Below, in pieces: positions 1 through 49,860 of a stretch of DNA of 64,000 nucleotides (positions are counted from its first letter, which is position 1; the number at the start of each line of letters is the position of its first letter). Source of the DNA: an uncultured Desulfospira sp. (GTDB taxonomy: Bacteria; Desulfobacterota; Desulfobacteria; Desulfobacterales; Desulfobacteraceae). The DNA lies in assembly GCA_963663165.1 (NCBI GenBank), contig OY760175.1:1376001-1440000 (forward strand), given 5' to 3'. Both the position numbers and the translations under genes were made by a program. The notes beneath the pieces were generated by a model, which ran no database searches, was not told where the DNA came from, and saw nothing but the letters and a program-made list of their open reading frames with translations.

Positions 1-151
1 AGTTGAACAGATATATATGGCCGTCAAAGGCGACATGAGAAAATTTAAAGAAATCTGTACAGACTGTCAGGACAGGGCAAAGGAGTTGAACCACAACTTT
101 GTTGATATCAATCTTGCCCTGGAATTTATATCCGACCTTCCTCCCCAGTAA
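1..151 (+). CDS. 3' end of a gene truncated by the window edge, possibly the lid region of a transposition-helper AAA ATPase
   Basis: Frame 2 is open: VEQIYMAVKGDMRKFKEICTDCQDRAKELNHNFVDINLALEFISDLPPQ, stop TAA at 149-151. 'G.MR' resembles an AAA lid motif. Confidence 0.4.
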   Translation, partial: VEQIYMAVKGDMRKFKEICTDCQDRAKELNHNFVDINLALEFISDLPPQ

Positions 152-176
152 TCCTTATCACAATTTATCTGCACTA

Positions 177-213
177 ACAGGCCACCTTGTGTTAGCACCA
201 AGGGCGGCCTTGT
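177..213 (+). terminator. Hairpin, probable terminator
   Basis: AGGCCACCTTG...CAAGGGCGGCCT imperfect stem just downstream of the stop at 151. Confidence 0.45.
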
Positions 214-603
214 TGTATCTGTTCATTATATAATGGTGCCGATGCCTGCTTGATCTATTGTTAATGTCTTGAAACCACAGACCATTTTTGAGTTCTTTTT
301 GGACCGTTACATTATTTTGCAATTATTCTTTTGATGACGATTTCACTCAACACTTTTAAATCACAATAAAAACATTGATTTTTATCGGTAGCATCAAGCC
401 TCAACACCGTTACAGTATTTGAAGCTCGTCAAAAGCTGTGATTATTGGCAAAACCTTCTTAAGGGTCTATAGTCTGTGATACTTGATATCTTTAGCGAAT
501 ATTCTCGATTATAACCGGATTGCAATATTTTGAATCTTTGATAAAATATTTATTCAGTAATGTTGAGGCCATCACAACAAAAATAGAGAATAGAGGGCTT
601 ATC

Positions 604-825
604 ATGCATCACAACACAATTTCTCCCAGCGAACAAGAAAGGTTCATTCTGGCCAAAATCAGGATGCTGCCTCCGGATAAAATTGCCGAGGTTTCAAATT
701 TTGTGGACTTTATCAGCCAAAAAAACCAGGACCGGAAACTGAGCAAAGCCGCCCGTGAAATGGCGGAAGACGCATTCAAAAGAGTCTGGGATAATGCCGA
801 GGATGACGCATATGATCGCCTATAA
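604..825 (+). CDS. Putative antitoxin (DUF2281-like) of a type II TA pair
   Basis: 73-aa ORF from ATG604 (LPPDKIAEVSNFVDFI...VWDNAEDDAYD). It overlaps the start of the downstream PemK-like toxin. Confidence 0.75.
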   Translation: MHHNTISPSEQERFILAKIRMLPPDKIAEVSNFVDFISQKNQDRKLSKAAREMAEDAFKRVWDNAEDDAYDRL

Positions 826-1150
826 CTTCGGGGATGTTATACTGGTGCCATTTCCATTTACTGATCAGAGTACAAGTAAAAAGCGCCCGGCGGTCATCAT
901 CAGCTCAAACTCATATAATCAAGAACGGCCGGATGTTGTAATTATGGCCATCACCAGTCAAATCCACGGTTCTGGTTATTTTGGTGATATCCGTATCCAA
1001 AAATGGCAGCAGGCCGGTCTTTTAAAAGCATCAGTCATCAAGCCGATTCTGACTACCGTTGAAAAAGGCCTCATCATAAAAAAATTAGGCTGCCTCTCTG
1101 ACAATGATCAAGAAGCCTTGAACAAAGGACTGCAAACTATTATTGGATAA
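812..1150 (+). CDS. PemK/MazF family toxin (endoribonuclease)
   Basis: GDVILVPFPFTDQSTSKKRPAVIIS and AITSQ motifs; ATG812 lies inside the antitoxin 3' end. Confidence 0.9.
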   Translation: MIAYNFGDVILVPFPFTDQSTSKKRPAVIISSNSYNQERPDVVIMAITSQIHGSGYFGDIRIQKWQQAGLLKASVIKPILTTVEKGLIIKKLGCLSDNDQEALNKGLQTIIG

Positions 1151-1198
1151 TTCTATCATTTTTTTATGAGATCGGAACATATAAAATAGAAGCCAGCA

Positions 1199-1310
1199 AC
1201 CTTAAATCGATGTTTTTGGGGGTAAAAACAGTCGATTAAGCCCGTTTTAGGCCCCCAAATAAGCAGGTAATCCTTTAATAACTGCTGGTTAGCGTGGCCC
1301 GACCCCACCG
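1199..1310 (-). repeat. Dispersed ~110-bp repeat 'A', inverted copy
   Basis: Its reverse complement matches the copies at about 2817, 3000 and 4683 (ACCAGCwGTTATTAAA...CCTAAAACGrGCTTAATCGACT...CCCCCAAAA...TTTAAGG). Confidence 0.85.
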
Positions 1311-1384
1311 CGACCCACCGCGGTCCGTGCCCACCGCGCTCCGTCCGGCACCCAAGTCCCAACTATGTACTTTTTTTCAACATG

Positions 1385-1424
1385 TGTGAAAACTTTTTCA
1401 CACCGTTGTGAACTTTTTTTCACA
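1385..1424. promoter_or_regulatory. Tandem palindromic upstream activator sites for a sigma54 enhancer-binding protein
   Basis: TGTGAAAACTTTTTCACA (1385-1402) and TGTGAACTTTTTTTCACA (1407-1424), 22 bp apart and about 150-190 bp upstream of the -24 box. Confidence 0.7.
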
Positions 1425-1573
1425 ATGAGTGTTTTCCCTGATTTTTCAGCTTTCATTTTTTAATGGGGTTGTATTAAGACAATAAATAATTTCGTCTACA
1501 ACCGTTTGAATTATAAGCTTTTTAAATCCATAAATCCTAAAAGAAGAAAATAATTGACACTTTTAAAAAATTA

Positions 1574-1589
1574 TGGCACTGTTATTGCA
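1574..1589 (+). promoter_or_regulatory. Sigma54 (-24/-12) promoter of the PEP-CTERM gene
   Basis: TGGCAC-TGTTA-TTGCA matches the TGGCAC-N5-TTGCW consensus. Confidence 0.85.
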
Positions 1590-1790
1590 TTTATAGATTA
1601 GCGTTACACAATGAAAAAAGTAGCAAACTTAAAATTGTACCATCAGAAAGGAGGCTAAATTAGGTACAGGGTTTGGTAAGAATTTTAACTTGGGGATAAA
1701 TTAAGTATCGTCCCCGGAATTTTGAAATTTAATTAAGAAGGGGGCTGTCCCCCCGGAATTAGAATTAAGACTTAAAAGAGGATTATAATC

Positions 1791-2720
1791 ATGAAATTTT
1801 TACGTTTGTTATTAGTGGCAAGTTTGTTGGTATTGTTTTCCAACAGCGCTTATGCTGACCCCTTTGCCATAGACCTTGACGGTGATGGTGATCTTGATAC
1901 TGGTACGGGTATCGGTGGTGCTTATGTAGATGAGATAGACTACTCAAGCTATGGTATTGTAGACCTTTACATTAATAGTATTACTACGGAACTTTCAGGT
2001 GATTTTAATGAACTCGCAGTCATTAAAGTTAGCGACAGTGAATTTTCTGGTGTTGGTGATTATGAAATGACAATTGTTCTTCAGGGTTCCGGTACCTTCA
2101 CTGCTGATTATGAGACTAATACTTCAGGAGACATCATAGTGGGGGATCAGGATTTTAGTTTCACTTCCGGTTCGCTGTCGATATACATAGACGATGGCAC
2201 TAATGTAAATTTCCTATCCACAGTTGCTGATGATGGAACTTATGTCGGTGCGGACGATGGTGACAAGGTTGCGACCTTCACCTTGACAACCGGCAACGGT
2301 ACTCTTCAGACTACTGAAGGTGAGACGGACAATGTTGATATCTGGAGCCTTCTTCTCGACTCTATTGCAGAGGACACCTTTTTCTTTGAAACTGGAATTG
2401 ATTTTAATGATGTTCTTGATCTAATTGCCGGGATTTTCGTACAACTCTACACCAATGATACCAACGAAGTACTTACTGATTCTGATATAATTGCCGGTCT
2501 TGAAGATGATCTTCAAAATGAACTTGCCGATGGTAATTACACTGAGATGTCCGGTGTTATCAAAGATCCAGATACAGGTGACGTAGTAGCTGAAGCTACC
2601 AGAATTTATGTTGAAACAGAAGGCTCGGCTGAGTTCTCTATCGTTCCCGAACCTACTACCATGCTTCTTTTCGGGCTTGGCCTTCTCGGCTTTGCCGGCT
2701 TGGGCAGAAGAAAGATTTAA
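1791..2720 (+). CDS. PEP-CTERM sorting domain protein, acidic (similar to flocculation-associated PepA types)
   Basis: Signal peptide ending SAYA; C-terminal VPEPTTMLLFGLGLLGFAGLGRRKI; GAGGA RBS. Confidence 0.95.
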   Translation: MKFLRLLLVASLLVLFSNSAYADPFAIDLDGDGDLDTGTGIGGAYVDEIDYSSYGIVDLYINSITTELSGDFNELAVIKVSDSEFSGVGDYEMTIVLQGSGTFTADYETNTSGDIIVGDQDFSFTSGSLSIYIDDGTNVNFLSTVADDGTYVGADDGDKVATFTLTTGNGTLQTTEGETDNVDIWSLLLDSIAEDTFFFETGIDFNDVLDLIAGIFVQLYTNDTNEVLTDSDIIAGLEDDLQNELADGNYTEMSGVIKDPDTGDVVAEATRIYVETEGSAEFSIVPEPTTMLLFGLGLLGFAGLGRRKI

Positions 2721-2752
2721 GCTTTAGATTATCGTTTTTTACTTTCGTTACA

Positions 2753-2787
2753 AAAAACCCGGTAGCTTGTGAGGCTACCGGGTTTTT
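2753..2787 (+). terminator. Rho-independent terminator, potentially bidirectional
   Basis: AAAAACCCGGTAGC-TTGTGAG-GCTACCGGGTTTTT perfect stem. Confidence 0.9.
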
Positions 2788-2816
2788 GTTATTGTGCGAT
2801 TATGGTCAAAATCTAG

Positions 2817-3176
2817 GCGGGGGTCGGTCCGCGCCAACCAGCTGTTATTAAACGATTAACTGTTTAAAAACTGCCCTAAAACGAGCTTAATCGACTCTTT
2901 TCACCCCCCAAAACACTGATTTAAGGATTTAACCCCAAATTCGATACTGTAAAATGGTATGGAAAGAATACGATTTTTAATATCCATATCATCCTTACGG
3001 GTCGGGGTCGGGCCACGCAAACCAGCTGTTATTAAACGATTAACTGTTTAAAAACTGCCCTAAAACGAGCTTAATCGACTCTTTTCACCCCCCAAAACGC
3101 TGATTTAAGGATTTAACCCCAAATTCGATACTGTAAAATGGTATGGAAAGAATACGATTTTTAATATCCATATCAT
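2817..3176 (+). repeat. Tandem duplication (period 184 bp) of repeat A plus the 3' end of the AAA ATPase gene
   Basis: 2820-2992 is near-identical to 3004-3176. Confidence 0.9.
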
Positions 3177-4422
3177 AGCCTGCCTGTGAAATTTTTATGC
3201 CAAAGTCAGATTTGAACGTATCAATAAACAGATGCATGCTTTTCATGTGCCCGTTGGCGCCGGATTTAACCTCAACGGGGATAACTTTCTCATTTTTTAC
3301 AATAAGGTAGTCTATTTCGGCGGTACTGTTCCGGGCGGCGCGGGCCCAATAATAAAGCGACGGCTTTGTATAGGCAGACTGATTTGCCATTAACTGCTGC
3401 CCTACAAACTGCTCGGAAACAGCGCCTTTAAAAATATCTGTAAAATCTTTTGCCCGGGCTGTTTCACCATAAATGTGATTCATTGCATGCATGAGTCCAA
3501 CATCAAGAAACAATGCCTTAAAATAGTTTTCTTTTGCACCGGCTTCTAAAGGCAGACCGGCGCCGCTTGTGGATTTGATCCTGACAATAACGCCTGCCAT
3601 TTCCAATAATTCAACAGCCTCTTTTAACTCTCTGGATTTAATGGAGCTGTCAATATTGGTGTAAACAAATTTTTGGCCCACCATTTTAGGCACGGCATAG
3701 AATACTTTTCGCAAATATCTGTGTTTCACTTTTTTTGCGTATTTCCCAAAGTCATCCATATACGTGTCAACTATTGACTGCTGGATTCTCTGGCATTTTT
3801 CAATATTTCCGGATAACCTATACTCCTGAAGCACCGCCGGCATACCACCTAATAAAAAGAATTTTCTAACATATTCAAGCAAACGGATATGAAGCGCCTC
3901 AGGCAATTTTTGCAGTTCAACTTTATTGTTTATATGTTTTCTCAGGGCTGTTTCGCCCATTGCATCAAGAAACTCCCCGTATGACAGGGGAAACATATAC
4001 AGGTACTGGACCCGGCCAACGGGCATACGAAAATTCTCAGAGTTCAAAGTAAATTCAACCAAAGATCCGGCGGCAATAACATGTAACTTGGGAAGTTCCT
4101 CGAAGAAATACCTTAATGCCATAATGGCTGCCGGGCAATCCTGTATTTCATCTAAAAAAAGCAATGTTTTTCCAATACTGGCTTGCTGCTGGGAAAACAA
4201 AAATATTTTTTCTAGAATTTCAACGGGATCAATACTTGTAAAAATCTCTTTATATTCAGGGTTCTTTTCAAAATTGAGTTCAATATAATTTTCAAATTCT
4301 TCCTTCCCAAAATGCCTGACCACATATGTTTTTCCAACTTGCCGTGGGCCACGGATAATTAATGGGCGCCTGTTTGATTCGGCTTTCCATTGCACAAGGA
4401 CTTCATATACATCTCTTTTCAT
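3085..4422 (-). CDS. AAA+ ATPase with DUF4143/PD-(D/E)XK-like C-terminus (AAA_14 family)
   Basis: Walker A GPRQVGKT, Walker B LFLDEIQ, GGMP, and C-terminal EIDYL...PVEVKS. Confidence 0.9.
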   Translation of the reverse strand: MKRDVYEVLVQWKAESNRRPLIIRGPRQVGKTYVVRHFGKEEFENYIELNFEKNPEYKEIFTSIDPVEILEKIFLFSQQQASIGKTLLFLDEIQDCPAAIMALRYFFEELPKLHVIAAGSLVEFTLNSENFRMPVGRVQYLYMFPLSYGEFLDAMGETALRKHINNKVELQKLPEALHIRLLEYVRKFFLLGGMPAVLQEYRLSGNIEKCQRIQQSIVDTYMDDFGKYAKKVKHRYLRKVFYAVPKMVGQKFVYTNIDSSIKSRELKEAVELLEMAGVIVRIKSTSGAGLPLEAGAKENYFKALFLDVGLMHAMNHIYGETARAKDFTDIFKGAVSEQFVGQQLMANQSAYTKPSLYYWARAARNSTAEIDYLIVKNEKVIPVEVKSGANGHMKSMHLFIDTFKSDFGIKISQAGYDMDIKNRILSIPFYSIEFGVKSLNQRFGG

Positions 4423-4806: not shown

Positions 4807-5394
4807 CTATTTTGATTCAAACCTAATATCCCAATAGATTTCAGACAGCGGCAACTGGCAATTAACGGATTCCATCTTTAAAATCCGGTCTTCACCTTCG
4901 TATGAACGATATTCCCACTTACCGCCATCACCGCGTATAAATTGTTCAACATGATACTCATCCTGAGAAACAAGTATATACTCCTGAAGCGTCGGAATGG
5001 CCCGGTAATAAGCAAATTTTTTGCCTCTGTCAAAAGCCTCGGTTGACTCAGAAAGGATTTCCATTATAACAACCGGGTTTGTCAGCGTGTCAAATTCATT
5101 ATCTTCAAACTCTGGGTCACCGCAATGAATTACAATATCAGGGTAAACATAGTTGTCTGCAATTTTCACACGCATATCATTGGAAACTGCTTTACAGGCG
5201 GAGTTATCCGCTTTGAATTTATTTCTTAACTCCCCTGCCAGGTTGGCATTAATATAAATATGATTTTTTTTTGCGCCAACCATGGCAAAGACTTCACCAT
5301 CAAAAAATTCATGTTTAACATCAAGAGCGTTTCTTTCAAGGTCAAGATACTCCCCTGGTGTCATTTTATTTTTATCCTGAGCCTGTGAGGTCAT
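4807..5394 (-). CDS. Uma2 family endonuclease (DUF820)
   Basis: KHEFFDGEVFAM, YVYPDIV, EILSESTEAFDRGKKF, LQEYILV; GGAGG RBS before ATG5394. Confidence 0.92.
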   Translation of the reverse strand: MTSQAQDKNKMTPGEYLDLERNALDVKHEFFDGEVFAMVGAKKNHIYINANLAGELRNKFKADNSACKAVSNDMRVKIADNYVYPDIVIHCGDPEFEDNEFDTLTNPVVIMEILSESTEAFDRGKKFAYYRAIPTLQEYILVSQDEYHVEQFIRGDGGKWEYRSYEGEDRILKMESVNCQLPLSEIYWDIRFESK

Positions 5395-5474
5395 CTTTTC
5401 CCTCCCATTTTGATTCAATTTGCCTGAATGACTTTATACACATAATAATATACGTGCGGTTTGCCCCCCTGTCT

Positions 5475-6686
5475 CTAATATAAAAAACCAAATAAGAATA
5501 AAGGGATTTCATACCTGGAGCTAAAAAGGATGTCGTCTTTAACTAGAAATGCCTGGTCCAGATGGCCCTTTATCTGCTTTTTGCCCTTGTTTTTCCCGCC
5601 AATTTCAAAAAAAAGGCCATTGACTTCAAAATCGCCGGTGTCACTGTAATGGATCTTATGGCCACTGTTTTGTATCATTCTTATAAAAAAAATCTCCCTG
5701 ATGGTTCCAAGTTGTGAGGAAAAGCCTGTCTCATCACTGACAGCTGCATAAATATCAGGATTATCAAGATAGATTTTTTCGGTCTGCTTGAGCAGACCGC
5801 CACCGGATTTGTTCTTTTTCACAAGTTCTGCCAGACCAGATTCGTTCAAAATATTCAAATAATTCTGAACGGTTTTATGATCCAGGCCTAAGGTTTTTGC
5901 AATGCTGTTTCGGTTCAATTCCCCCGGTGGGACTGTGGAAAGATAAGAGATAATCCGCTTAAAAAAATGCAGATTCTCTGTCTTTAATTTGTAGAAATTG
6001 GCAATGTCTTCAAAAACGGTTTTTTCCACTACCCTTAATATTTTCTGATGATAGGTTGCCGTCCCCTCCAGGTGAAAAGGATAATACCCCCGGCCCAGAT
6101 AATTTTTAAAATGGCCTTTAATTTTGTTAATGCCGACCGTTTGAGCACTTATATCTGAATGGTTATTCAGAAGAATGCTAAGTTGAACCGGGGCCATATC
6201 CACCACGTTGTTAAACAGGAGATACTCCCTGAACGACAGCCCTTCCAGGCGGTACAGGACCCCTCTTCTGGACAGGTCGTGGCTTTCCCTGACAAGGTCA
6301 ATACTCGAACTTCCCGAAAAAACAATCCAGACATCCGGGTAGGCATCATAAATATTTTTTAGCTCCTGATTCCAGTTGGTATATTTATGTATTTCATCCA
6401 GAAAAAAATAGTGAACGCCGTGTTCTTCAAGCAATTCATTTACAAATTCAATCAGAAGCCCGTTAGAAAAATAAATATGGTCCATTGAAACATAAATGCA
6501 GTCATCCGGGTTTTCCATTTTTTCTTTTATGTATTGAAGCAGAAGCGTTGTTTTTCCTGTTCCCCTGGGACCAATTACGCCGGTTAAACGGCTGTCCAGG
6601 CGAAATGAATCGAAAAGGTAGCGGTGATGGGGATATTGAATTGAGTTTAGCAGTCGTTTATATGTTTGAATAAAATAAGATATCAT
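5475..6686 (-). CDS. AAA+ ATPase (AAA_14 family) with HTH-like and C-terminal nuclease-like regions
   Basis: GPRGTGKT, FFLDEIHKY, DLSRR, GYYPF, FEIGGKNKG. Start is probably ATG6686. Confidence 0.88.
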   Translation of the reverse strand: MISYFIQTYKRLLNSIQYPHHRYLFDSFRLDSRLTGVIGPRGTGKTTLLLQYIKEKMENPDDCIYVSMDHIYFSNGLLIEFVNELLEEHGVHYFFLDEIHKYTNWNQELKNIYDAYPDVWIVFSGSSSIDLVRESHDLSRRGVLYRLEGLSFREYLLFNNVVDMAPVQLSILLNNHSDISAQTVGINKIKGHFKNYLGRGYYPFHLEGTATYHQKILRVVEKTVFEDIANFYKLKTENLHFFKRIISYLSTVPPGELNRNSIAKTLGLDHKTVQNYLNILNESGLAELVKKNKSGGGLLKQTEKIYLDNPDIYAAVSDETGFSSQLGTIREIFFIRMIQNSGHKIHYSDTGDFEVNGLFFEIGGKNKGKKQIKGHLDQAFLVKDDILFSSRYEIPLFLFGFLY

Positions 6687-40676: not shown

Positions 40677-42055
40677 GGGATGTGGTAAAATTAAAACCCA
40701 CAATTCATTCCTCATAGCATGGAATATCAACAGCCCATTTTTCAATCCCTGGAATCCGAATAATTTTGTTTTCTATATTATTCACGACGGACTTGACCAA
40801 ACGTACCCCTGTCGGGTAAACACCTTTGATTAATTTGACGACAGGATTTTCTCCTTTCCATGTCATTGTTCGACATAGACCGAGAACCTTTTCAATTTTG
40901 TTCAGCAATTCGCCTTTCCAATGATTTTCCAAAACACCCCAAACTCGCTCTATTGGGTTGTATTTACTGTGGTACGGGGGATAGTACACCAAACTAATAT
41001 TTACAAATGCTGATTTGGCAAAGTCCACGAGGCGACTAATGAATTGGCTCCTTCGGCTACTATTTTCCGGCCCATTATCAAGATTGATCACCAGTGTATG
41101 TGGGGCGAATCTTGCGTTCAAAGAAGGCCAGAGTGATTCCAGCGCATCAATCATGAAATCAGAGGTGATGTTGCTTTCAGTGAAGTACATATAATTTTCA
41201 TCCAGAGCAGGTATGTTGATACCGAAAAGTTTCAAAAGGGAATCGGGTTTAAAATCATGGTCCGCCGCTTTAAGATTGCAACGACTATATCCGCCTCGGG
41301 AATAAGGCCCTATTTTAATAGTGGCTTTTGCGTCCATTGAGATACGTAAAACGCCATCTGTTTCATCGGCTAGTTGGTTTGTCCTATGCACATATTCAAA
41401 AATGATGTCTGTTTCAGGAATTTTTTTTTACCTTGGCTTTGGCGACCTTCTTCAGTTTAAAACCCAATTTATTCATTATGGTGGATAGAGTCCGTACTGT
41501 TGGCATATTCTCAGGGTCATATCCCATGTCGTCAACTAATCGACGGAATACTTCATTCGCAGATATTGGGGAATATAAATTCTGGGTACGGAATGTAGGA
41601 TCAGTCTGACATATAGGGTTTACAATACGAGTTATGTCCTCTTTTAAATTCGGAAAATGTTCTAAACACGATTTCCGGCCTCGTCCGGAAAAATTATCAA
41701 CACAGGTAACTCCGCTTTCTATTTCCCGTCGCCCTTTGATTATTGTTTTCCGATCCCAACCCAGTTCTCTTTCAGCCTTTAGTTGTCCGCCGTGCCCCAT
41801 AAGGGAGACAACGCGTGCCATGAATTGGCGCCGTTCATGGCCTTTTAATTTGCTTCGAGTGGTATTCAGAAAATCCTTTAGTGGTGGCGTTAATTCCGAT
41901 ATAGTTTTGGGTAAATTGTGCTTAGAATGATCAAACATGGTCCTCCTGTATTTTTATGTAATCTTCCATGTTGACCATAAACTATCGATTCCATGTTGTC
42001 TATAGAAATCAGAATTCAGACTATGGAATTGTGGATATTAATTTTTCTGAGGCCC
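40677..42055 (-). mobile_element. ISAzo13-family insertion sequence, copy 3 (nested)
   Basis: Same ends; TCA target duplication; one Ala-to-Val change and a 1-bp shorter T run upstream of the RBS. Confidence 0.92.
40705..41938 (-). CDS. ISAzo13-family transposase, two frames joined at an A9 run
   Basis: As copy 1. Confidence 0.88.
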
Positions 42056-43794
42056 TCAGATCATGTCGTCAACATGGCATATAATATTCTTGCCGGTGGC
42101 ACCTGCCTTCAGGATATTGAGCTGCTCAGAAACAATGAAGCCTGGTTGAATGCTCTGGATGCAGAAATTATCCCCGATCCCACTACAGCCGGAGACTTTT
42201 TGCGCCGGTTTTCCAAGGAAGATATCATAACTCTGCAGGACGTCAAAAATACCATCCGGAAAAAGGTATGGGAAAAGCAGCCGCAAAACTTCAAGAAAGA
42301 AGCCATCATCAATATCGACGGCACTATCAGTGAAACAACCGGCGAGTGCAAACAGGGTATGGACATCTCTTATAATGGTAAGTGGGGATATGCCCCTCTG
42401 ATAGTCTCTCTGGAAAAAACAAGGGAGCCTCTTTATATAATCAATCGATCCGGCAATGCTCCGTCCCACCTCAACTCTGCGGGTTGGGTGGATAAGTCCC
42501 TTGATCTGCTGGAAGGCACTTTTAAAAAATTATACGTTCGGGGTGATACTGATTTCAGCCTTACTTCCAATTTTGACAAATGGGATCAACGCTGTACCTT
42601 TGTCTTTGGCATGGATGCCAGATCAAACCTGATAAAACTGGCCGGTGGCCTTTCAGATTCCGAATGGGAGATATTTGAAAAACAGCCGCAAGCAATCAAA
42701 ACAATCCCCAGAAAACGTCCTGAAAATATCAAACTTCAAGTGGTCAAAAAACGCAATTTCAAACGTCTTGAGACCGCCTGTGAACATATAGCCGAATTTG
42801 AATATAAACCTGGTAAATGTCGGCAACCCTACCGGATGATCGTGCTGCGCAAAACAATAAATGAGTATAAAGGCGAACGTCTATTGTTTGACGATATCCG
42901 TTACTTTTTTTACATCACAAACGATTGGAAAAAATCAGCCAGGCACCTGGTGGATTTTTACCGGAAACGGGCGGATCACGAAAATGACATTGATCAGTTG
43001 AAACATGGCGTGCATGCAATGGCTAATCCTTCTGATTCCCTAAATGCCAACTGGGCCTATATGGTTGTTGCATCTTTGGCATGGGATCTGAAAGCCTGGT
43101 ATGGAATGATGATGCCGTATCGAGCTTTAGGTCTTTCCATCGTCCGTATGGAATTCAAACGCTTTATCCAGACATTTATAAATATCCCTTGCTTGATCAT
43201 ACGTTCCGGCAGGGCCATTAAATATCGAATCATTGGTTATAACAACAGGCTCACAAGCGTGTTCAAGTTTTTTAACTCTTTGAAGACTGCCTGGGTTACA
43301 TGATGCCTTTGCTCCGGACAGTTATTGCAAACGGGCTGCAATGGCGAGTCTAAAACCTGTAGATTTCAAAAGGGAATTTAAGCAATGAACCACAACACAA
43401 TCGGCAGTATTCCAAAAAACATCAGGACTCGTGCGTCTGTTTGATGGAAATTGGAGACACAAAATAATAGCTCGGGGCGCCGATTGCTTATGAGAAATTC
43501 ATTTTTTATAACACGCTTGTTTTGGGATTAATACATCTTTTTAAGTAATACCTGGATATACTATATTCCCTCTCAAAACTAAAAAAAGACACTGCCCCAG
43601 AAATAAAAAAGAATATCGGAACAAAAACGTGCAGAAACTCTGAGTAAGGCCGATAGTGAGAATGGTCACAAAAAATCATGGAAAAATTGAAGATAATTTG
43701 CAAGATATGTCAGGTTTGAGGCAGAAGTTCCCCTGTTTATCTCGCAAATAATCGTGAAACTCCTGCCTCCCCACCCAATAACAGGGCAGGAGAT

Positions 43795-44382
43795 ATGCTA
43801 TCAGAAGTTCTGAAAAACGAAAGTTTTTTTTGGGATCTATACAAAATAGATCTGGCAACAGCCGAACGTTATAGACAGATGAAGTGCCCCCACTGCCAGG
43901 GACCGTTGTATTATGCCAATTATCCGCGCAAACCCAGGGGGGAGCCTGAAGGGTTGTCTGAAGAATGTTTTTTACAATTCAGTTTATGTTGCGGAAGGGA
44001 AGGCTGTCGACGTCGTTTGATCCCGCCAACCTGCCGTTTCCTTGGTAAAAACATTTACTGGTATGCGGCCATTCTGACGATTGTGTCCGACTGGCAGAAC
44101 CAATCTGTAGGTATCACGATGTCCAGGTTTGCTGAAACAATCGGTATCTCCCGCAACACCCTTAGCCGCTGGGTCAGCTTATTCAAAGAAATATTTCCAA
44201 CAAGCTCTCAATGGAAGAAAATCCGGGGCCGAGTACCTGCAAGCGTAAAAAATGATCGTCTTCCAGCAAGTTTGGTCAACTTCTATCTGCATCAACAGGC
44301 GTCCATCAAAAAAACGTTGATCTCCTGTTTGTCATTCTTGTCTCAAGGCAGTGAAATATCACAAAAAATAAGGGCCGGGTAA
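43795..44382 (+). CDS. Transposon accessory protein with Zn ribbon and HTH (DUF6431-like)
   Basis: CPHC...CCGREGC; IGISRNTLSRW HTH-like segment; AGGAG RBS. Confidence 0.7.
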   Translation: MLSEVLKNESFFWDLYKIDLATAERYRQMKCPHCQGPLYYANYPRKPRGEPEGLSEECFLQFSLCCGREGCRRRLIPPTCRFLGKNIYWYAAILTIVSDWQNQSVGITMSRFAETIGISRNTLSRWVSLFKEIFPTSSQWKKIRGRVPASVKNDRLPASLVNFYLHQQASIKKTLISCLSFLSQGSEISQKIRAG

Positions 44383-44497
44383 TCTCACGCAGAAGATGGG
44401 CGTGGCCTTGGGCGCTCAACTGTTCTATCAAAGGGGCCGGGATTTTTATCAGCATTTCGCTGAAAATTTTAACTCAAAATTGAAAGGACCCCGGCCT

Positions 44498-45943
44498 ATG
44501 AACAGTAAAAACCAAAGTCCGGTTGATAACTGGGCTTTGTTTCGCTTCTCAGTCGTTGGCGGTTTGCTGGCAAATCCGCCGGCCAAAGGTGAGCTGCGCA
44601 AGGAACTGGAAAAGCTTTCCTATCAGATTTACACCCATCCCATCACGAACGAATCAACGGTATTTCATTTTTCAACTATTGAAAGCTGGTATTACAAGGC
44701 AAAAAATGCCCAGGACCCCATTATTGCTTTAGGGCGGAAAGTTCGTTCTGACTATGGCGGTTCAATTGTATTCACACCTGAACTGATCCGGATGCTGGGC
44801 AGACAATACCGGACTTATCCGAACTGGAGCTACAAACTGCACGCAGATAATTTCGCAGCAGAACTCCAGGAAAAGGAGGCTTCAGTATCGGTACCATCCT
44901 ATGCCAGTGTCCGGCGGCGGATGATCGAAAGGGGGTGGACCAGGAAGCCCTCAGCAAAGAAAAAACAGACAGCGGGTATGAAAATTGCCGCAAAGCGGTT
45001 CGAAAGCCATGAAATCCGAGGATACGAAGCAGAATATGTTCACAGCCTGTGGCATCTGGATTTTCATGAAGGCAGTCTGCGGGTGGTGGATAACAACGGT
45101 AACTGGTATACGCCCAAAGCCTTATGTATTCTTGACGACCATTCCCGCCTGTGCTGCCACATCCAATGGTATTCAGGAGAAACCACCCAGGATTTGATTC
45201 ATGGATTGACCCAGGCATTTTTCAAAAGGGGGCTTCCCAGGGCACTGATGACGGACAACGGATCTGCCATGACCTCCCATGAGTTTTGCAACGGTCTTAA
45301 AAAAACAGGGATACTTCATGAAACGACACTGCCCTACAGCCCTTATCAAAACGGTAAGCAGGAAGCCTTTTGGGGAACCCTTGAAGGCAGATTGATGGCC
45401 ATGCTGACCCGGGTGGACCCTCTGACACTGGAATATCTCAATCACAGCAGTCAGGCCTGGGTCGAGATGGAATATAACAAAACCAGGCATAGTGACATCG
45501 GCACATCTCCTGTTCAACGCATGCTTGAAGGCAAAGATGTTTCCCGGCCGGCACCGGATGAAGAGCAACTGAGGTTCGCCTTTACAGTCTGCGAATCCAG
45601 AAATCAGCGAAAATCTGACGGTACCGTGTCCATCAACGGGGTAAGATTTGAGATCCCTTCCCGGTTTCACCATATCCCTCGGTTACATGTCTGCTTTGCC
45701 AATTGGGATAAATCCATGGCCTGGCTCATGGACCAGAGAACCGGCAAACAGATTGCGCAGATCTACCCCCAGGACAAAATCAAAAATGCTTCAGGAAAAC
45801 GAAAGATCAAGTCGAGACCTGAGCATACCATTCTACCGGATGAAACATTGAAAGAATCCGAGCCTGCATTATTAAGAAAACTGATGGCCGAGTATGCCCA
45901 AAGCGGCATGCCTCCAGCCTATCTTCCCAAAGGAGAATCATGA
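44498..45943 (+). CDS. DDE transposase/integrase (rve core, Mu-like C-terminal domain)
   Basis: LWHLDF, ILDDHSR, LMTDNGS, PYSPYQNGKQE, DGTVSINGVRFE. Start is probably ATG44498. Confidence 0.9.
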   Translation: MNSKNQSPVDNWALFRFSVVGGLLANPPAKGELRKELEKLSYQIYTHPITNESTVFHFSTIESWYYKAKNAQDPIIALGRKVRSDYGGSIVFTPELIRMLGRQYRTYPNWSYKLHADNFAAELQEKEASVSVPSYASVRRRMIERGWTRKPSAKKKQTAGMKIAAKRFESHEIRGYEAEYVHSLWHLDFHEGSLRVVDNNGNWYTPKALCILDDHSRLCCHIQWYSGETTQDLIHGLTQAFFKRGLPRALMTDNGSAMTSHEFCNGLKKTGILHETTLPYSPYQNGKQEAFWGTLEGRLMAMLTRVDPLTLEYLNHSSQAWVEMEYNKTRHSDIGTSPVQRMLEGKDVSRPAPDEEQLRFAFTVCESRNQRKSDGTVSINGVRFEIPSRFHHIPRLHVCFANWDKSMAWLMDQRTGKQIAQIYPQDKIKNASGKRKIKSRPEHTILPDETLKESEPALLRKLMAEYAQSGMPPAYLPKGES

Positions 45944-46767
45944 ACAACAAACAGCTTCTGGCTTATTACGGCCTTAAATGGAACCCTTTTTTTCCTAATA
46001 TCCCCGTGGAAGCCTTATGGCATCCGCCATTGATGAACAGTTTTATTTTTCGTCTTGAGAATATGACCCTGAACGGGGGCTTTGCTTTGATCAGCGGGGA
46101 CCCCGGCCTTGGCAAATCCAAGGCGTTGCAGATGATTGCCCAAAAGTTCGGTAAACTTGACGAGGTAGTTGTCGGGGTAATGGAACGTCCCCAAAGCAGT
46201 GTCGGAGACTTTTACCGGGAAATGGGAGTTTTGTTTGGTGTCAATTTGAGCCCTGCCAACCGGTACGGCGGGTTCAAGGATCTTCGGGAGCGCTGGAAAA
46301 GTCATGTAAAAACCACCTTGTTCCGGCCCATCCTGCTCATAGATGAGGCCCAGGAGATGCTGACCGGATGCTTAAATGAACTGCGTTTGTTGAACAGCGC
46401 GGACTTTGACTCCCAAAACCTGTTGACCACCGTGATTTGCGGCGATGACCGGCTCCCGGAACGGTTCAGATCAAGATCCCTGGTATCGCTGGGAAGCCGG
46501 ATGCAGTTCCGGCTGACGCTGCTTCCCTATGTCCGGGATGACCTGCTGGATTACATGGATCACAGCCTGAACCAGGCCGGCGCCCCGCACTTAATGACGA
46601 AAACTCTGATCAGGACCCTTGCAGACCATTGCGCCGGCAACCTGCGGGTTCTTAACAATATGGCCGCAGACCTGCTGACTGCGGGGATTGAAAAAGAACT
46701 CAATCAATTGGACGAAAAGCTTTTTATGGAAGTCTATTCCAGACAGCCGCCCAATAAAAAATCATAG
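45940..46767 (+). CDS. ExeA-like AAA ATPase (transposition helper)
   Basis: YGLKWNPF, GDPGLGKS, LIDEAQ, GNLR; ATGA overlap with the transposase. Confidence 0.88.
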   Translation: MNNKQLLAYYGLKWNPFFPNIPVEALWHPPLMNSFIFRLENMTLNGGFALISGDPGLGKSKALQMIAQKFGKLDEVVVGVMERPQSSVGDFYREMGVLFGVNLSPANRYGGFKDLRERWKSHVKTTLFRPILLIDEAQEMLTGCLNELRLLNSADFDSQNLLTTVICGDDRLPERFRSRSLVSLGSRMQFRLTLLPYVRDDLLDYMDHSLNQAGAPHLMTKTLIRTLADHCAGNLRVLNNMAADLLTAGIEKELNQLDEKLFMEVYSRQPPNKKS

Positions 46768-46776
46768 GAGAACAAT

Positions 46777-46959
46777 ATGGGTATTTATGATGATCCGGAC
46801 ATGAAACTGGAAGAAATCACACAGGAATTGGAACATTTTATCCTGGATATGGTCCTTGCCGGACTTGAAAGCTTGAATATGGAATATCGGGCCTTCAGGC
46901 GATTCCAGAAACAAAGGCTCACGGAAAAGAACCGTCATAAAGAACACGAGCCGTTTTGA
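46777..46959 (+). CDS. Small hypothetical protein inside the transposon
   Basis: 60 aa with an AGGAG RBS, placed operonically after the ATPase. Confidence 0.6.
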   Translation: MGIYDDPDMKLEEITQELEHFILDMVLAGLESLNMEYRAFRRFQKQRLTEKNRHKEHEPF

Positions 46960-46996
46960 ACGTACGCCCGGACTCCAAAGGTCCGGGCCTGCCTCA

Positions 46997-47785
46997 ATGG
47001 AAAAAATACTTTGGAAAATCGGCAATTATTTTAAGCACCGCTTCAGCCTGGCAGTTCTTGATGAAATTAAGGGCCGGTGGCCCGTTCTCCCCTCTTGTAA
47101 AAACATCCCTTATCTTAAAGCTGAAAATGCCGGAGGAAGGCACATCCTGATCAGACCTGATCCTGTTATTCAGCCTTATTATTTTCTTGCCGACGATTTA
47201 AACATTGACCTGCTTATCCGGCATCATCAATCCATATCAAACCGCTTTAAACCAGGCAGGATGGTTATAGAAACATCTCCCGGCAATTATCAAATTTGGA
47301 TTCACAGTGACCGTCCGTTAAGCCTTCCCGAAAAAAAGTATTGGTTGGAAAACATGCACAGTGATCCCGGCGCCGACCCGAAAAACAGGTGGGGCAGATG
47401 CCCCGGGTTCAGGAACAGAAAAGCAAAACACAGAACGCCTTCAGGACAATACCCTTTGGCAAAGCTATTATGGGTGGACTGGAAATGCCAGGCTATTGTC
47501 CCTGAAATAGAATTATCCTCCCAACCTCAAGAAGTCTTTTCCCATCAACCCCGGGGGGGAGTGTGCCATAACGGTAATATTTCCCGCTCCCTCTATGATA
47601 AGGGTGACGAATCTGCCACTGATTTTGCATATGCTCTGGCCCTCTATAGAAGAGGTTTCTCACGAATGGAAATTTACAATCGCATTATCAATGAAAGGCA
47701 GGATTGGATTAATCATGCGGGTGAACGAAAAAAAACACAGTATCTGATCAGGACATTACAGAAAGCTGAAAAAATTATCAGTTAA
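46997..47785 (+). CDS. RepB'-family DNA primase (IncQ/RSF1010 type, AEP superfamily)
   Basis: YLKAENAGGRHILIRP, LADDL, VIETSPGNYQIW, DPGA...GRCPGFRNRK; C-terminal helical domain DESATDF...YLIRTL. Confidence 0.85.
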   Translation: MEKILWKIGNYFKHRFSLAVLDEIKGRWPVLPSCKNIPYLKAENAGGRHILIRPDPVIQPYYFLADDLNIDLLIRHHQSISNRFKPGRMVIETSPGNYQIWIHSDRPLSLPEKKYWLENMHSDPGADPKNRWGRCPGFRNRKAKHRTPSGQYPLAKLLWVDWKCQAIVPEIELSSQPQEVFSHQPRGGVCHNGNISRSLYDKGDESATDFAYALALYRRGFSRMEIYNRIINERQDWINHAGERKKTQYLIRTLQKAEKIIS

Positions 47786-47949
47786 AATCGGGCTCTCTTG
47801 GCCTCCGGGAAAGCCCTTATTTACCATGAAACGTTGTCCATGAATTATCGTGATTGCTCTCACGATAGAACCAAAACCCCCCTACATGTCCGAAAACAAT
47901 TGCAAAAATTGCAATCGTCCTCACATAAGATAGGAAATCGCTGTCTGTC

Positions 47950-49860
47950 TTAGAAAGAGTAGCTGCCATCGCCATCGAAAAAAATTCTATGAAACAACTC
48001 CAAGGTGATCAATGAAATAATAGTGGCAGAAGACCCTGAAGCATAATCTGTTTTTTGATCTAAAAAATTGTTCACCAGTTGTTCTAAAAATTGCTTATCA
48101 AAATAGCCCCGGCTTGTTGTCCGAGAATCCAGTAGTAACTCTTTAACATATTTTGGATTTCTTTGGATTAGCCATTGATCAATCGGCATATCAAATCCTT
48201 TTTTTTTCTTTCTCAACGTTTGTTCAGGAAGAATATTGCCCATGATTTTCTTAAGAATGTATTTACCCTCTCTGCCCTTTATTTTCATTGAAACAGGTAA
48301 GGAAGCCACAAATTCTACCAACTCTCTATCATGAAAGGGGCTTATTGCAACCAACCCGTGAGCCATTGTCATTCGATCCACCTTCACCATCAGGTCATCA
48401 GGTGCATATGAATGGGTATCAAAATAAAGCATTCTATCAATCATCTCGAAACCGGACACTTCCCCGTATAACGACTCCGCATAGGAGAGCGGGTTGTTTT
48501 TTTTGTTTATTTCCATCATATCTGATGAATAAAGGCAGGGTTTCATAAGCTCGGGAACAGGCATATTGCAAATAATTCGCTGCATCTCAATGGGAAATGT
48601 TTCTCTGTACAATTTTCTTTTTATTTTATCATTCAAAGAAGATGTGCCGGAAGATATGGGAAGCCTTTTAATAATTCTATTTACAAATTTGTTCCGAAAA
48701 AGAAAGTTTAAACGAGAATCATTCTCCCTATGGTCCAAGGCTTTCATATAATGGCCTGATCCCCCTAAAATCTGATCCGGCAAATCTCCTGTCAAGACAA
48801 CATCAACTTCACTTTTGGCTAATTTTGAAGCAAAATATGAAGGTATGGCAGAGGTGTCGCTAAAAGGTCCATCATGGAACCAGACCAATTTTTCAACGAG
48901 ATCTGAAAAATCACTTCCGAACTCAATGATTGTTGAGTAGTGTAATAGCCCTAAATGATCTGCGACTATTTTTGCATCATCAATTTCGTTATATTCTTTT
49001 TCCCTGAATCCACCTGAAAACACTTTAAAAGGTGAGGGGCGAATCTTGCTCATTGCAGCCACAACACTGCTTGAATCCATCCCGCCACTAAGAAATGCTC
49101 CTGCATCCGGATATTTGTCTAAGCATCTTGAAACCGCTTTCAGGAATATGTCGTAAAATTGAGCACAATAGAATTCTTCACTTTGTTCTTCAGCCTCGTG
49201 ATGGTATTCAAACTGCCAGTATCGTTTTTCTTCAACACTTGATTCTTTAAAAACCACCATATGCCCGGGGCGTACCTGGAAAACGGATTGAAGCATGGTG
49301 TTAGGACTTGGAACATACCAATAAGATAAAAAATCATCTATTGCGCCAAGGTTAACCCTTTTTTCAATAAGCCCGGTTCCAATTATCGCCTTTATCTCAG
49401 AAGCGAATAGAATGGTACCGTCATTCTTTTTTGTATAAAATATTGGTTTCGCGCCCATTCGGTCACGTATCAGAATCAACTCTCTTCTTTTACCGTCCCA
49501 AATAGATATACTGTAAGATCCGTCGATCTTATCAACACAATCCTTCCCATAATTTTTATACAGTTGCAAGACAAGTTGGGCATCTCCCAAACTTTCGCAT
49601 AGAGCCGATTTATCACCAGTCTGACAAAGAATATCTCCATCCATGGCCACCATGATATCTTCTTTTGTATCTATGGCATGGACTTTAGAATCCCTTCCCC
49701 CATAAGTGTGGTATCGTACCCCTGCTGAAAACGGCATAGAAGAGTCGTTCACCCATGCGTATTTCCCCCGATGACAGATAGCACCAAGCATTGTTGTGAT
49801 TAACCCGTGTTTTTCATTTTGATCAATTTTGCGACTATGGATTCCTGCAATTCCACCCAT
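47950..49860 (-). CDS. asnB: Asparagine synthetase B-like amide synthetase with a degenerate glutaminase domain
   Basis: RDRMGAKP, FASEIKA, LSGGMDSS, KVDRMTMAHGL, KKKGF; N-terminus MGGIAG lacks the Cys. Confidence 0.85.
   Translation of the reverse strand: MGGIAGIHSRKIDQNEKHGLITTMLGAICHRGKYAWVNDSSMPFSAGVRYHTYGGRDSKVHAIDTKEDIMVAMDGDILCQTGDKSALCESLGDAQLVLQLYKNYGKDCVDKIDGSYSISIWDGKRRELILIRDRMGAKPIFYTKKNDGTILFASEIKAIIGTGLIEKRVNLGAIDDFLSYWYVPSPNTMLQSVFQVRPGHMVVFKESSVEEKRYWQFEYHHEAEEQSEEFYCAQFYDIFLKAVSRCLDKYPDAGAFLSGGMDSSSVVAAMSKIRPSPFKVFSGGFREKEYNEIDDAKIVADHLGLLHYSTIIEFGSDFSDLVEKLVWFHDGPFSDTSAIPSYFASKLAKSEVDVVLTGDLPDQILGGSGHYMKALDHRENDSRLNFLFRNKFVNRIIKRLPISSGTSSLNDKIKRKLYRETFPIEMQRIICNMPVPELMKPCLYSSDMMEINKKNNPLSYAESLYGEVSGFEMIDRMLYFDTHSYAPDDLMVKVDRMTMAHGLVAISPFHDRELVEFVASLPVSMKIKGREGKYILKKIMGNILPEQTLRKKKKGFDMPIDQWLIQRNPKYVKELLLDSRTTSRGYFDKQFLEQLVNNFLDQKTDYASGSSATIISLITLELFHRIFFDGDGSYSF

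Follow-up and report, generated by a model that had tools for sequence, protein, structure and literature searches.

Why should a transposon of little more than 4 kb carry a gene for a DNA primase? The question is raised by a 64,000-nt stretch of the genome of an uncultured Desulfospira sp. (GenBank assembly GCA_963663165.1, contig OY760175.1, positions 1,376,001 to 1,440,000; hereafter the window), in which an initial annotation, made from the letters alone, had placed a five-gene transposon with a RepB'-type primase at 43657–47862. It proposed an element that primes its own DNA synthesis, during replicative transposition or as an excised circle. On sequence comparison, the element belongs to the Tn6049 family of transposons and its backbone is not new. 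We put at about an even chance that it is a Tn6049-family element with a gained primase that serves the replicative step of transposition. Convergence argues for it most strongly: in related elements, two unrelated primases and a replicative-type helicase occupy one slot, which has no other identifiable content.

The element is a real, recently active transposon. It is 4206 bp long, has TGAGA...TCTCA ends and carries CGATAG duplicated on either side. The window's own genome (6.74 Mb, one contig) was searched by BLAST with 43657–47862 as query, a count that the initial annotation had suggested, and 11 copies were found. Nine are contiguous and align to bases 1–4206, first base to last (five at 100% identity across all 4206 bases, one at 99% and three at 97%), with the five open reading frames (ORFs) intact in each. 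One of the other two spans the contig ends, and the second is interrupted twice. These end-to-end matches confirm the exact ends and imperfect inverted repeats (IRs) first proposed: the left end starts TGAGAATGGTCAC... at 43657, the right end finishes ...GATTGCTCTCA at 47862, and no inverted pair in the region is longer than the one formed by the termini (33 nt, 73% complementary). Direct repeats of 3, 3, 4, 5, 5, 5, 6, 6 and 6 bp, with no shared sequence, flank the nine contiguous copies. The 6-bp duplication claimed for the window copy is therefore real, though its length varies from 3 to 6 bp among copies.

The primase is well preserved. Its product matches RepB_primase (PF16793; E 1.5e-15, 58 bits, cut-off 24.3) and RepB_primase_C (PF22448; E 1.7e-8, 34.6 bits, cut-off 26.1), and a profile of 24 sequences aligns with both domains of RSF1010 RepB' (structure 3H20; E 6.7e-20, residues 12–291). 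According to the available portion of a mutational study, RepB' variants D77A, D78A and D134A make no detectable primer, R145A is below detection and R285A stalls at the dinucleotide (PMC8567376). The first four residues correspond to D66, D67, D123 and R134 of the window protein, which are invariant, and R285 corresponds to R252, which is nearly so; the equivalent of RepB' D238 alternates between D and N among relatives. The LADDL and DP motifs, previously read as the intact acidic motifs of a two-domain primase, do match D77/D78 and D134. Across the 24 sequences, 55–80% identical to the window's protein, 71 alignment columns are invariant. Ratios of nonsynonymous to synonymous substitution (dN/dS) against two ∼80% identical relatives are 0.10–0.12 for the primase, 0.08–0.09 for the transposase and 0.08–0.10 for the ATPase, with more distant pairs being saturated. 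By these measures, the primase is intact and under purifying selection, and it is catalytically plausible. Its identity to IncQ-type RepB' proteins is 23–29%. The nearest plasmid protein (44% identity) is encoded on a mobilizable plasmid, with ParA on one side and type IV secretion genes on the other. All 11 matches to PF16793 in the window's genome lie inside copies of the element.

The rest of the element proved familiar. The initial annotation knew of no described family with such an architecture, a view overturned by a search of plasmid proteins. Cupriavidus metallidurans plasmids and P. aeruginosa pHS87a encode a protein with 46.9% identity to the transposase across 96% of the latter (E 4e-133). 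The annotated locus of pMOL30 has the same gene order, with a 181-aa 'transposase', an 'IS481 family transposase', an 'AAA family ATPase' and a 71-aa hypothetical protein; the IS481 label is the one that the annotation pipeline gives to the Tn6049 transposase. The four-gene core is thus that of Tn6049. In the accessible parts of the reports on it, Tn6049 is a 3.5-kb element with 12 copies in CH34, each including a gspA-like gene for an ATPase (PMC2864759); the pHS87a copy ends in 12-bp inverted repeats that start TGTGC and is flanked by a 4-bp duplication (PMC4739549); and its genes are tabulated as Mob prot, TnpA, ATPase and UF (PMC3414803 supplement).

Relatives of the transposase were sampled irrespective of the primase. 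A scan of one genome per species gave at least 562 relatives, and 79 loci were kept. Their record titles name Desulfobacterota, SAR324, Campylobacterota, Bacteroidota, Acidobacteriota, Verrucomicrobiota, Planctomycetota, Myxococcota and others, and nearly all of them keep the genes for a zinc-ribbon/helix-turn-helix (Zn/HTH) protein, the transposase and the ATPase in synteny. The slot between this core and the right end, where the window element has its primase gene, holds a RepB'-type primase in four loci, a DnaG-type primase (CHC2 zinc finger plus Toprim) in five, a RepA-like AAA_25 helicase in 12, an ORF of no assigned family in three and nothing in 16 (nine of these being copies in one record); 39 loci were not judgeable. 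Many unjudgeable contigs stop 200–800 bp past the ATPase gene, as cargo-less elements would, so a replication gene in at least 21 of the 79 loci is a floor and not a rate. Never does the slot hold two of the three enzymes.

Each occupant was traced to its family. The AAA_25 relatives directly follow the ATPase gene in all 12 helicase loci, five of them cut by the contig end. In the four-copy element of one record, a 341-aa AAA_25 protein (Pfam E 3.7e-33) lies within the repeat unit, and the sole match of the AAA_25 slot protein among solved structures is the RSF1010 RepA helicase (E 4.7e-11). CHC2 and Toprim domains were found in the slot protein of two loci, and tblastn extended the DnaG-type primase to five, one of which is cut by the contig end; in another, L101, the right-end motif of the family lies 3' of the primase gene. 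One locus of the sample has a divergent RepB-type primase, and one record contains sister elements with a RepB-type primase in one and a DnaG-type primase in the other. On a labelled tree, slot content changed at least 14 times (RepB' at least six, DnaG at least five and helicase at least four). Two non-homologous primases and a helicase in one slot point to the element's own DNA replication.

The helicase loci, which lack a primase, are L113:8261-9286, L070, L071, L098, L114, L115, L118–L120 and L125–L127. The DnaG-type primases lie at L086:3236-4174, L101:8337-9266, L099:4837-5775, L100:5268-5894 and L089:3246-3704 plus 4909-5481, the last being split by an insertion with a family-less 356-aa ORF. 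Slot ORFs of L080, L089 and L095 were considered as primases and rejected, being unrelated to the primase profile (probability ≤0.4%).

Does the primase stay with the element? In the wider family it mostly does not. A primase-less relative, present in nine copies in one record, is 3542 bp long, has a near-identical left end and retains a small ORF like the fourth ORF of the window element; the primase gene alone is therefore the add-on, gained between the small ORF, which belongs to the core operon, and the right end. In the transposase-based sample, a close primase was found in only three of 35 judgeable loci. The window's own branch is different. On a transposase tree of 83 rows (two rows with stops dropped, identical rows merged), the window falls in a fully supported clade of 18, in which 11 rows have the primase, two lack it and five were not judgeable. 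The two primase-less rows group with two unjudged contigs whose sizes match; this group is nested in the clade as the sister of two primase-bearing elements, which reads as loss. Within this clade the primase was kept while transposases diverged to ∼65% identity, and three sub-clades (L053/L147, L049/L136/L143 and window/L130/L132) match between the transposase and primase trees. In the window's subfamily, then, primase and transposase descend together, apart from one nested loss. The initial annotation had looked to co-evolution of the two proteins, with the primase inside the IRs, as support for its idea, and to close relatives mostly lacking the primase as its refutation. Each applies at a different depth: the first describes the subfamily, with 11 of 18 rows and matching sub-clades, and the second describes the family beyond it. 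Transfer of the module is indicated as well, by a conflict between trees at L133/L134, where the transposase is only 50% identical to the window's and the primase is 74% identical and sister to the window's. Two more Tn6049-family groups bear a primase, from separate branches of the primase tree.

The same primase was found on other compact elements. A metagenome profile scan (80 loci) and an order-level genome search (8 of 201 genomes) gave 93 primase loci, which were classed by their neighbors. Class A (27 loci) is the Tn6049-like family. Class B (34 loci) has a 148-aa ORF, an IS481-like transposase (207.7 bits against a cut-off of 224), an AAA_22 ATPase and the primase last. Class C (five loci) has the primase, a ParB-like protein, IstA and IstB, and class D (12 loci) has three tandem tyrosine recombinases followed by the primase (recombinase-in-trio). 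The 15 unclassed loci are mostly contigs <2 kb. Hence 78 of the 93 loci adjoin one of four transposition modules, and the primase always lies beside one element end. In one recombinase-in-trio locus, L194, the Phage_integrase ORFs occupy 268-1197, 1194-2105 and 2118-3104, and the primase follows. Similarity among four class D loci from different sources stops at the same point, ∼78 nt past the primase stop codon, so the primase lies inside this kind of element too. On a primase tree of 89 rows (four left out for stops or length, the window-identical copy dropped), context is clustered, with 18 changes versus 47 when shuffled, and classes A, B and D each need at least three switches on well-supported branches. 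Tentatively, and with the balance tilted against it, we suggest that these are phylum-spanning compact elements (Tn6049-like, a second type with DDE transposase and ATPase, IS21 with ParB, and recombinase-in-trio) sharing an interchangeable 'replication slot', self-priming or self-unwinding on the transposition intermediate, independently of the host restart primosome, and that they form an undescribed prokaryotic class.

Further examples of class B are L163, L183 and L149, on contigs of 3.4–5.4 kb. The IS21-type carriers are L050, L048, L207, L201 and L209, with the ParB-like protein between the primase and IstA in the first three, and additional class D loci are L161, L169, L174 and L196. 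Two unclassed loci have plasmid- or phage-like neighbors (SSB, RadC and a MoxR-like ATPase; DUF5906 and HNH). At L142:1559-2356, a primase of the window's clade (66% identical) has unrelated neighbors of 229, 194 and 563 aa without a Pfam family, the 194-aa one having a weak partition-protein match only; L142 may represent a fifth kind of carrier.

What might a primase do for such an element? Mu, TnsA-less relatives of Tn7 and enzymes of the IS21/IS3 type cut and join 3' ends only. Completion of transposition therefore calls for DNA synthesis across the element, whether at a strand-transfer fork or as a circle is copied out. No second nuclease (TnsA-like) or resolvase is present among the element's ORFs and Pfam matches, which, together with one end-to-end circle among the relatives, makes a replicative step most likely. 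The element would then move via copy-out through a circle or tandem junction, or via a Mu-type strand-transfer fork. The primase would lay a primer on the element strand left single-stranded in this step, and second- or lagging-strand synthesis over the 4 kb could proceed without waiting for the host restart primosome. From the original proposal of a self-priming element, the position of the primase inside the IRs and its co-inheritance in the subfamily stand as observed; its part in replicative transposition or in replication of an excised circle is what we would predict from them.

The circle comes from L134, a primase-bearing relative. The termini of this contig overlap by 129 identical bp and its period is 4299 bp; L133 and L134 are circular permutations of each other. 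The right end (...GTCCGCGCTCA) and the left end (TGAGTGCGGAC...) lie 4 bp apart in L134 (TTTC), as they do at L133:3090-3430. L134 may be a circle or a tandem dimer. Contigs from the four sequencing runs analyzed contained no joint between right and left ends, in any of the four. In contig data, element/flank depth was ∼5.7 and 8, a rough measure that is not above the genomic copy number.

A hairpin 9–15 nt upstream of the primase ATG, seen in many class A elements, was considered as a priming site. Its stem sequences differ widely, and it folds well in all 16 segments picked by eye (z −2.0 to −6.3). A perfect stem of ≥7 bp was found upstream of the primase in 17/26 class A, 3/30 class B, 1/12 class D, 1/5 class C and 2/14 unclassed loci, and in 129/3000 random windows. 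As a control, seven tails without a RepB'-type primase were inspected: an 8–14-bp hairpin follows the small ORF in L055, L088 (L090 has the same sequence), L074 and Tn6049, L104 has none, and the tail of L070 is the helicase gene. Presence at the same place in primase-less relatives and Tn6049 rules out an ssiA-like priming site. The hairpin is therefore a backbone feature, with the primase inserted behind it. A host without PriA was ruled out as well, since priA scores 640 bits.

Several observations weigh against a role for the primase in the replicative step. No cognate priming site was found, the hairpin at 46966–46988 being shared with primase-less relatives, and the host genome has priA. 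The circular form is a single contig among ∼160 loci, and the assembled window genome has 0 matches to a right-end/left-end junction pattern with a gap of 0–12 bases. The primase also ends 12 recombinase-in-trio loci, whose tyrosine recombinases form no Mu-type fork. We know of no experiment on any family member. Finally, the family can dispense with the primase: 16 of 40 judgeable loci hold nothing in the slot, a primase-less sister lineage still reaches at least nine copies in one genome, and Tn6049 reaches 12 copies without one, according to the accessible part of its description (PMC2864759).

One alternative is that the primase makes the excised circle a short-lived replicon, primed, for example, at an extruded hairpin or transcription bubble and copied by host polymerases, and so raises the number of integration-competent circles. 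The same would hold for any element with a circular intermediate, no matter which recombinase moves it. It is the sole idea that spans all four backbones, including recombinase-in-trio and IS21, and it fits the helicase in the same slot of relatives, the presence of the primase in the only circular contig found (L134) and the precedent of replication proteins in recombinase-moved elements set by SCCmec, as described in the available part of PMC7581432. Yet the element has no initiator or origin-like repeats, no member has both helicase and primase, the depth ratios of ∼5.7 and 8 are, as a rough measure, within the genomic copy number, and the circle of L134 could equally be a tandem dimer. We consider this explanation unlikely.

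Alternatively, the primase could be cargo unrelated to transposition, acting, for example, in the establishment of incoming single-stranded DNA, repriming after damage or counter-defence, and riding good vehicles. That most family members manage without it, that it shifts between unrelated backbones and that its nearest plasmid relative (44% identity) belongs to a mobilizable plasmid, flanked by ParA and type IV secretion genes, would all agree with this. A host-beneficial gene, however, is expected to become fixed outside mobile elements, whereas 78 of 93 loci fall within four kinds of compact element and the remaining 15 are mostly short contigs. Moreover, the primase is the sole cargo of these elements, and it shares its slot with a non-homologous primase and a helicase. 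We consider this account unlikely, too. A neutral or decaying hitch-hiker from a plasmid, for which only the patchy distribution speaks, is barely credible given a primase intact in nine of nine contiguous copies, with dN/dS of ∼0.1 and 71 invariant columns in 24 sequences, that was kept through transposase divergence to ∼65% identity.

We return, then, to a gained primase that serves the replicative step. The presence of replication enzymes in the slot suggests that elements help copy themselves when moving. On the prevailing view, replicative and copy-out transposition rely entirely on the replication-restart machinery of the host; to our knowledge, handover from transpososome to replisome has been worked out for phage Mu only. 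Repeated filling of the slot, together with the same primase on three other kinds of element, is the pattern expected if priming or unwinding limits the spread of elements. The system is also genetically simple, with 4-kb elements, one accessory gene of known catalytic residues, and natural sisters with and without that gene. It also takes RepB'-type primases beyond the plasmids from which they are known.

Neither the primase-bearing form nor the broader occurrence of replication genes in compact elements seems to have been described; an entry in ISfinder or TnCentral may exist. The available parts of the three Tn6049 papers (PMC2864759, PMC4739549, PMC3414803) mention neither primase nor helicase; in the accessible text of PMC3414803, 'primase' occurs 0 times in the main text, and 'primase' and 'helicase' 0 times in the supplement. 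A survey of archaeo-eukaryotic primases lists, in its accessible portion, 11 members of the RepB' family, as plain primases or relaxase fusions, and has the stem 'transpos' once, in a figure key (PMC5862659). In the part available of a survey of Tn7-like cargo, 'primase' appears only within the name Toprim (PMC8649781). In a search that mostly did not cover subscription journals, no literature was found linking a primase to Tn6049, IS21, IS481-like or recombinase-in-trio elements.

The features of the element and its insertion site are collected in Table 1. All five genes are on the plus strand, in the order and with the identities first assigned to them.

Table 1. Features of the primase-bearing element and of the gene it interrupts (window coordinates).
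Feature	Position	Strand	Evidence
Interrupted host acyltransferase-like gene, downstream part	43506..43656	-	Empty-site ORF; weak Acyl_transf_3 match
Left target-site duplication, CGATAG	43651..43656	.	3–6-bp repeats flank 9/9 contiguous copies
Left terminal inverted repeat, TGAGAATGGTCAC...; probable transposase-binding end	43657..43685	+	Genomic copies start exactly at 43657; end sequence conserved in primase-less relative
Zn-ribbon + HTH protein, 195 aa, core gene 1	43795..44382	+	Invariant C34, C65, C66, C71; upstream of transposase in nearly all 79 relatives
DDE transposase, 481 aa	44498..45943	+	rve E 5.8e-13; D188, D253, E289 invariant
AAA+ ATPase, MuB-like, 275 aa	45940..46767	+	AAA_22 E 4.6e-16; Walker A G56, G58, K59, S60 and D135, E136 invariant
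Small ORF, core gene 4, 60 aa	46777..46959	+	No Pfam family; 35–65% identical ORFs in relatives
GC-rich hairpin, 8–9 bp, after small ORF	46966..46988	.	z −3.6; not terminator-like by consensus scan
RepB'-type DNA primase, 262 aa, catalytic + helix-bundle domains	46997..47785	+	Pfam; profile versus 3H20
Right terminal inverted repeat, reverse complement TGAGAGCAATCAC...	47834..47862	-	Copy boundaries; inverted-repeat search
Right target-site duplication, CGATAG	47863..47868	.	Sequence
Interrupted host acyltransferase-like gene, start	47869..47975	-	Empty-site ORF; weak Acyl_transf_3 match

The Zn/HTH protein has invariant cysteines arranged as CxxC...CC...C and, after them, an HTH with a weak Pfam match. 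Its structural model is confident (predicted local distance difference test score, pLDDT, 90) and has no specific fold match, with generic HTH matches only (Z up to 4.6); a sequence search against solved structures gave nothing under E 0.8. A TniQ-like identity was not supported, TniQ being listed neither by Foldseek nor by a wide structural search.

For the transposase, the start is the ATG at 44498, as in homologues; the longer start at 44396 is not used by them (they cover 93% of the longer form). Its model has a mean pLDDT of only 60, with a confident all-beta segment (residues 364–422) after the catalytic core, and its best Foldseek matches are TnsB (8e-10), IstA (1.4e-8) and MuA (6.5e-8), over ∼470 columns of that low-confidence model. 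NCBIfam scores are 37 bits for the IS21 transposase (cut-off 160) and 104.6 bits for the IS481 equivalog (cut-off 224). The DDE domain stands as annotated. The Mu-like C-terminus once claimed for this protein was not shown by a Pfam scan, and the all-beta segment would be its counterpart in the model.

The ATPase has AAA_22 as its only Pfam match, not IstB_IS21 (PF01695), and a profile of 28 sequences matches MuB (8xvb) at E 1.6e-6 over 223 positions, versus 0.16 for TnsC. The small ORF has a counterpart in the primase-less element and in Tn6049, and its dN/dS in the window element is 0.30–0.47. Between 43657 and 47862, the ORF list and Pfam matches contain no relaxase, helicase or further cargo, in agreement with the initial annotation. 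Promoter and terminator scans of the element gave hits no more frequent than in shuffles, and an Rfam scan of 43300–48200 gave a single match, far under threshold.

The insertion split a host gene, as had been suspected. When the element and one CGATAG are removed in silico, a minus-strand ORF of 85 aa runs unbroken through the junction, and its two halves match Pfam Acyl_transf_3 at consecutive profile positions (3–29 and 42–77), weakly (E 1e-3 and 1.5e-4). This acyltransferase-like gene is also truncated at 43506, beside two other transposase ORFs; a minus-strand DDE_Tnp_ISAZ013-like fragment and a DDE_Tnp_1_4 protein (436 aa) at 41414–43303 adjoin the truncation point. Elsewhere in the genome, the twice-interrupted copy (G000:C1:4929062-4939243) contains inserts of ∼4063 bp and ∼1901 bp, each with a 6-base overlap of element coordinates, the second breaking the primase near residue 218. 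Ten of the 11 copies lie on one strand of the contig (G000:C1), a bias that may be chance. No link between orientation and replication direction was seen: by GC skew, six copies are co-directional and five head-on.

How does the element compare with known systems? With Tn6049 it shares the same four genes in order on one strand; both are multi-copy, duplicate a short stretch of target and have a hairpin 3' of the small ORF. Tn6049 is 3.5 kb without a primase, whereas the window element is 4206 bp with a fifth gene; and in place of TGTGC 12-bp ends and a 4-bp duplication, it has ends TGAGAATGG... and TGAGAGCAA... and duplications of 3–6 bp. Like phage Mu (MuA/MuB), Tn7-like elements, Tn5053 (TniA/TniB) and IS21 (IstA/IstB), it pairs a DDE transposase with an AAA+ target-DNA ATPase; we know of none of these described with its own primase. 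It has no ORF for TnsA or a resolvase, and TniQ was not detected in Pfam and structural searches. Against the Tn7-like pair TnsB/TnsC, the transposase model (pLDDT 60) matches TnsB at 8e-10, and the ATPase is nearer MuB (1.6e-6) than TnsC (0.16). It differs from IS21 in having an AAA_22 ATPase instead of the IstB type (PF01695) and a transposase under the IS21 NCBIfam cut-off, and from IS481 in a transposase under the equivalog cut-off and in five genes versus a single-gene insertion sequence (IS).

The primase resembles RSF1010 RepB' in its two domains and in its catalytic and helix-bundle residues, and the helicase in the slot of relatives matches RSF1010 RepA. In contrast to RSF1010, the window element has no RepC initiator, oriV or recognizable ssiA/ssiB, and the primase gene lies in a transposon rather than a plasmid replicon. 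Casposons, pipolins and the primase-helicase operon of SCCmec, as the accessible portions of their descriptions present them, are likewise recombinase-moved elements encoding DNA-synthesis proteins. Those are 10–60 kb long and have a polymerase, or a primase-polymerase and helicase, whereas here a 4-kb IS-like element carries a single primase or helicase.

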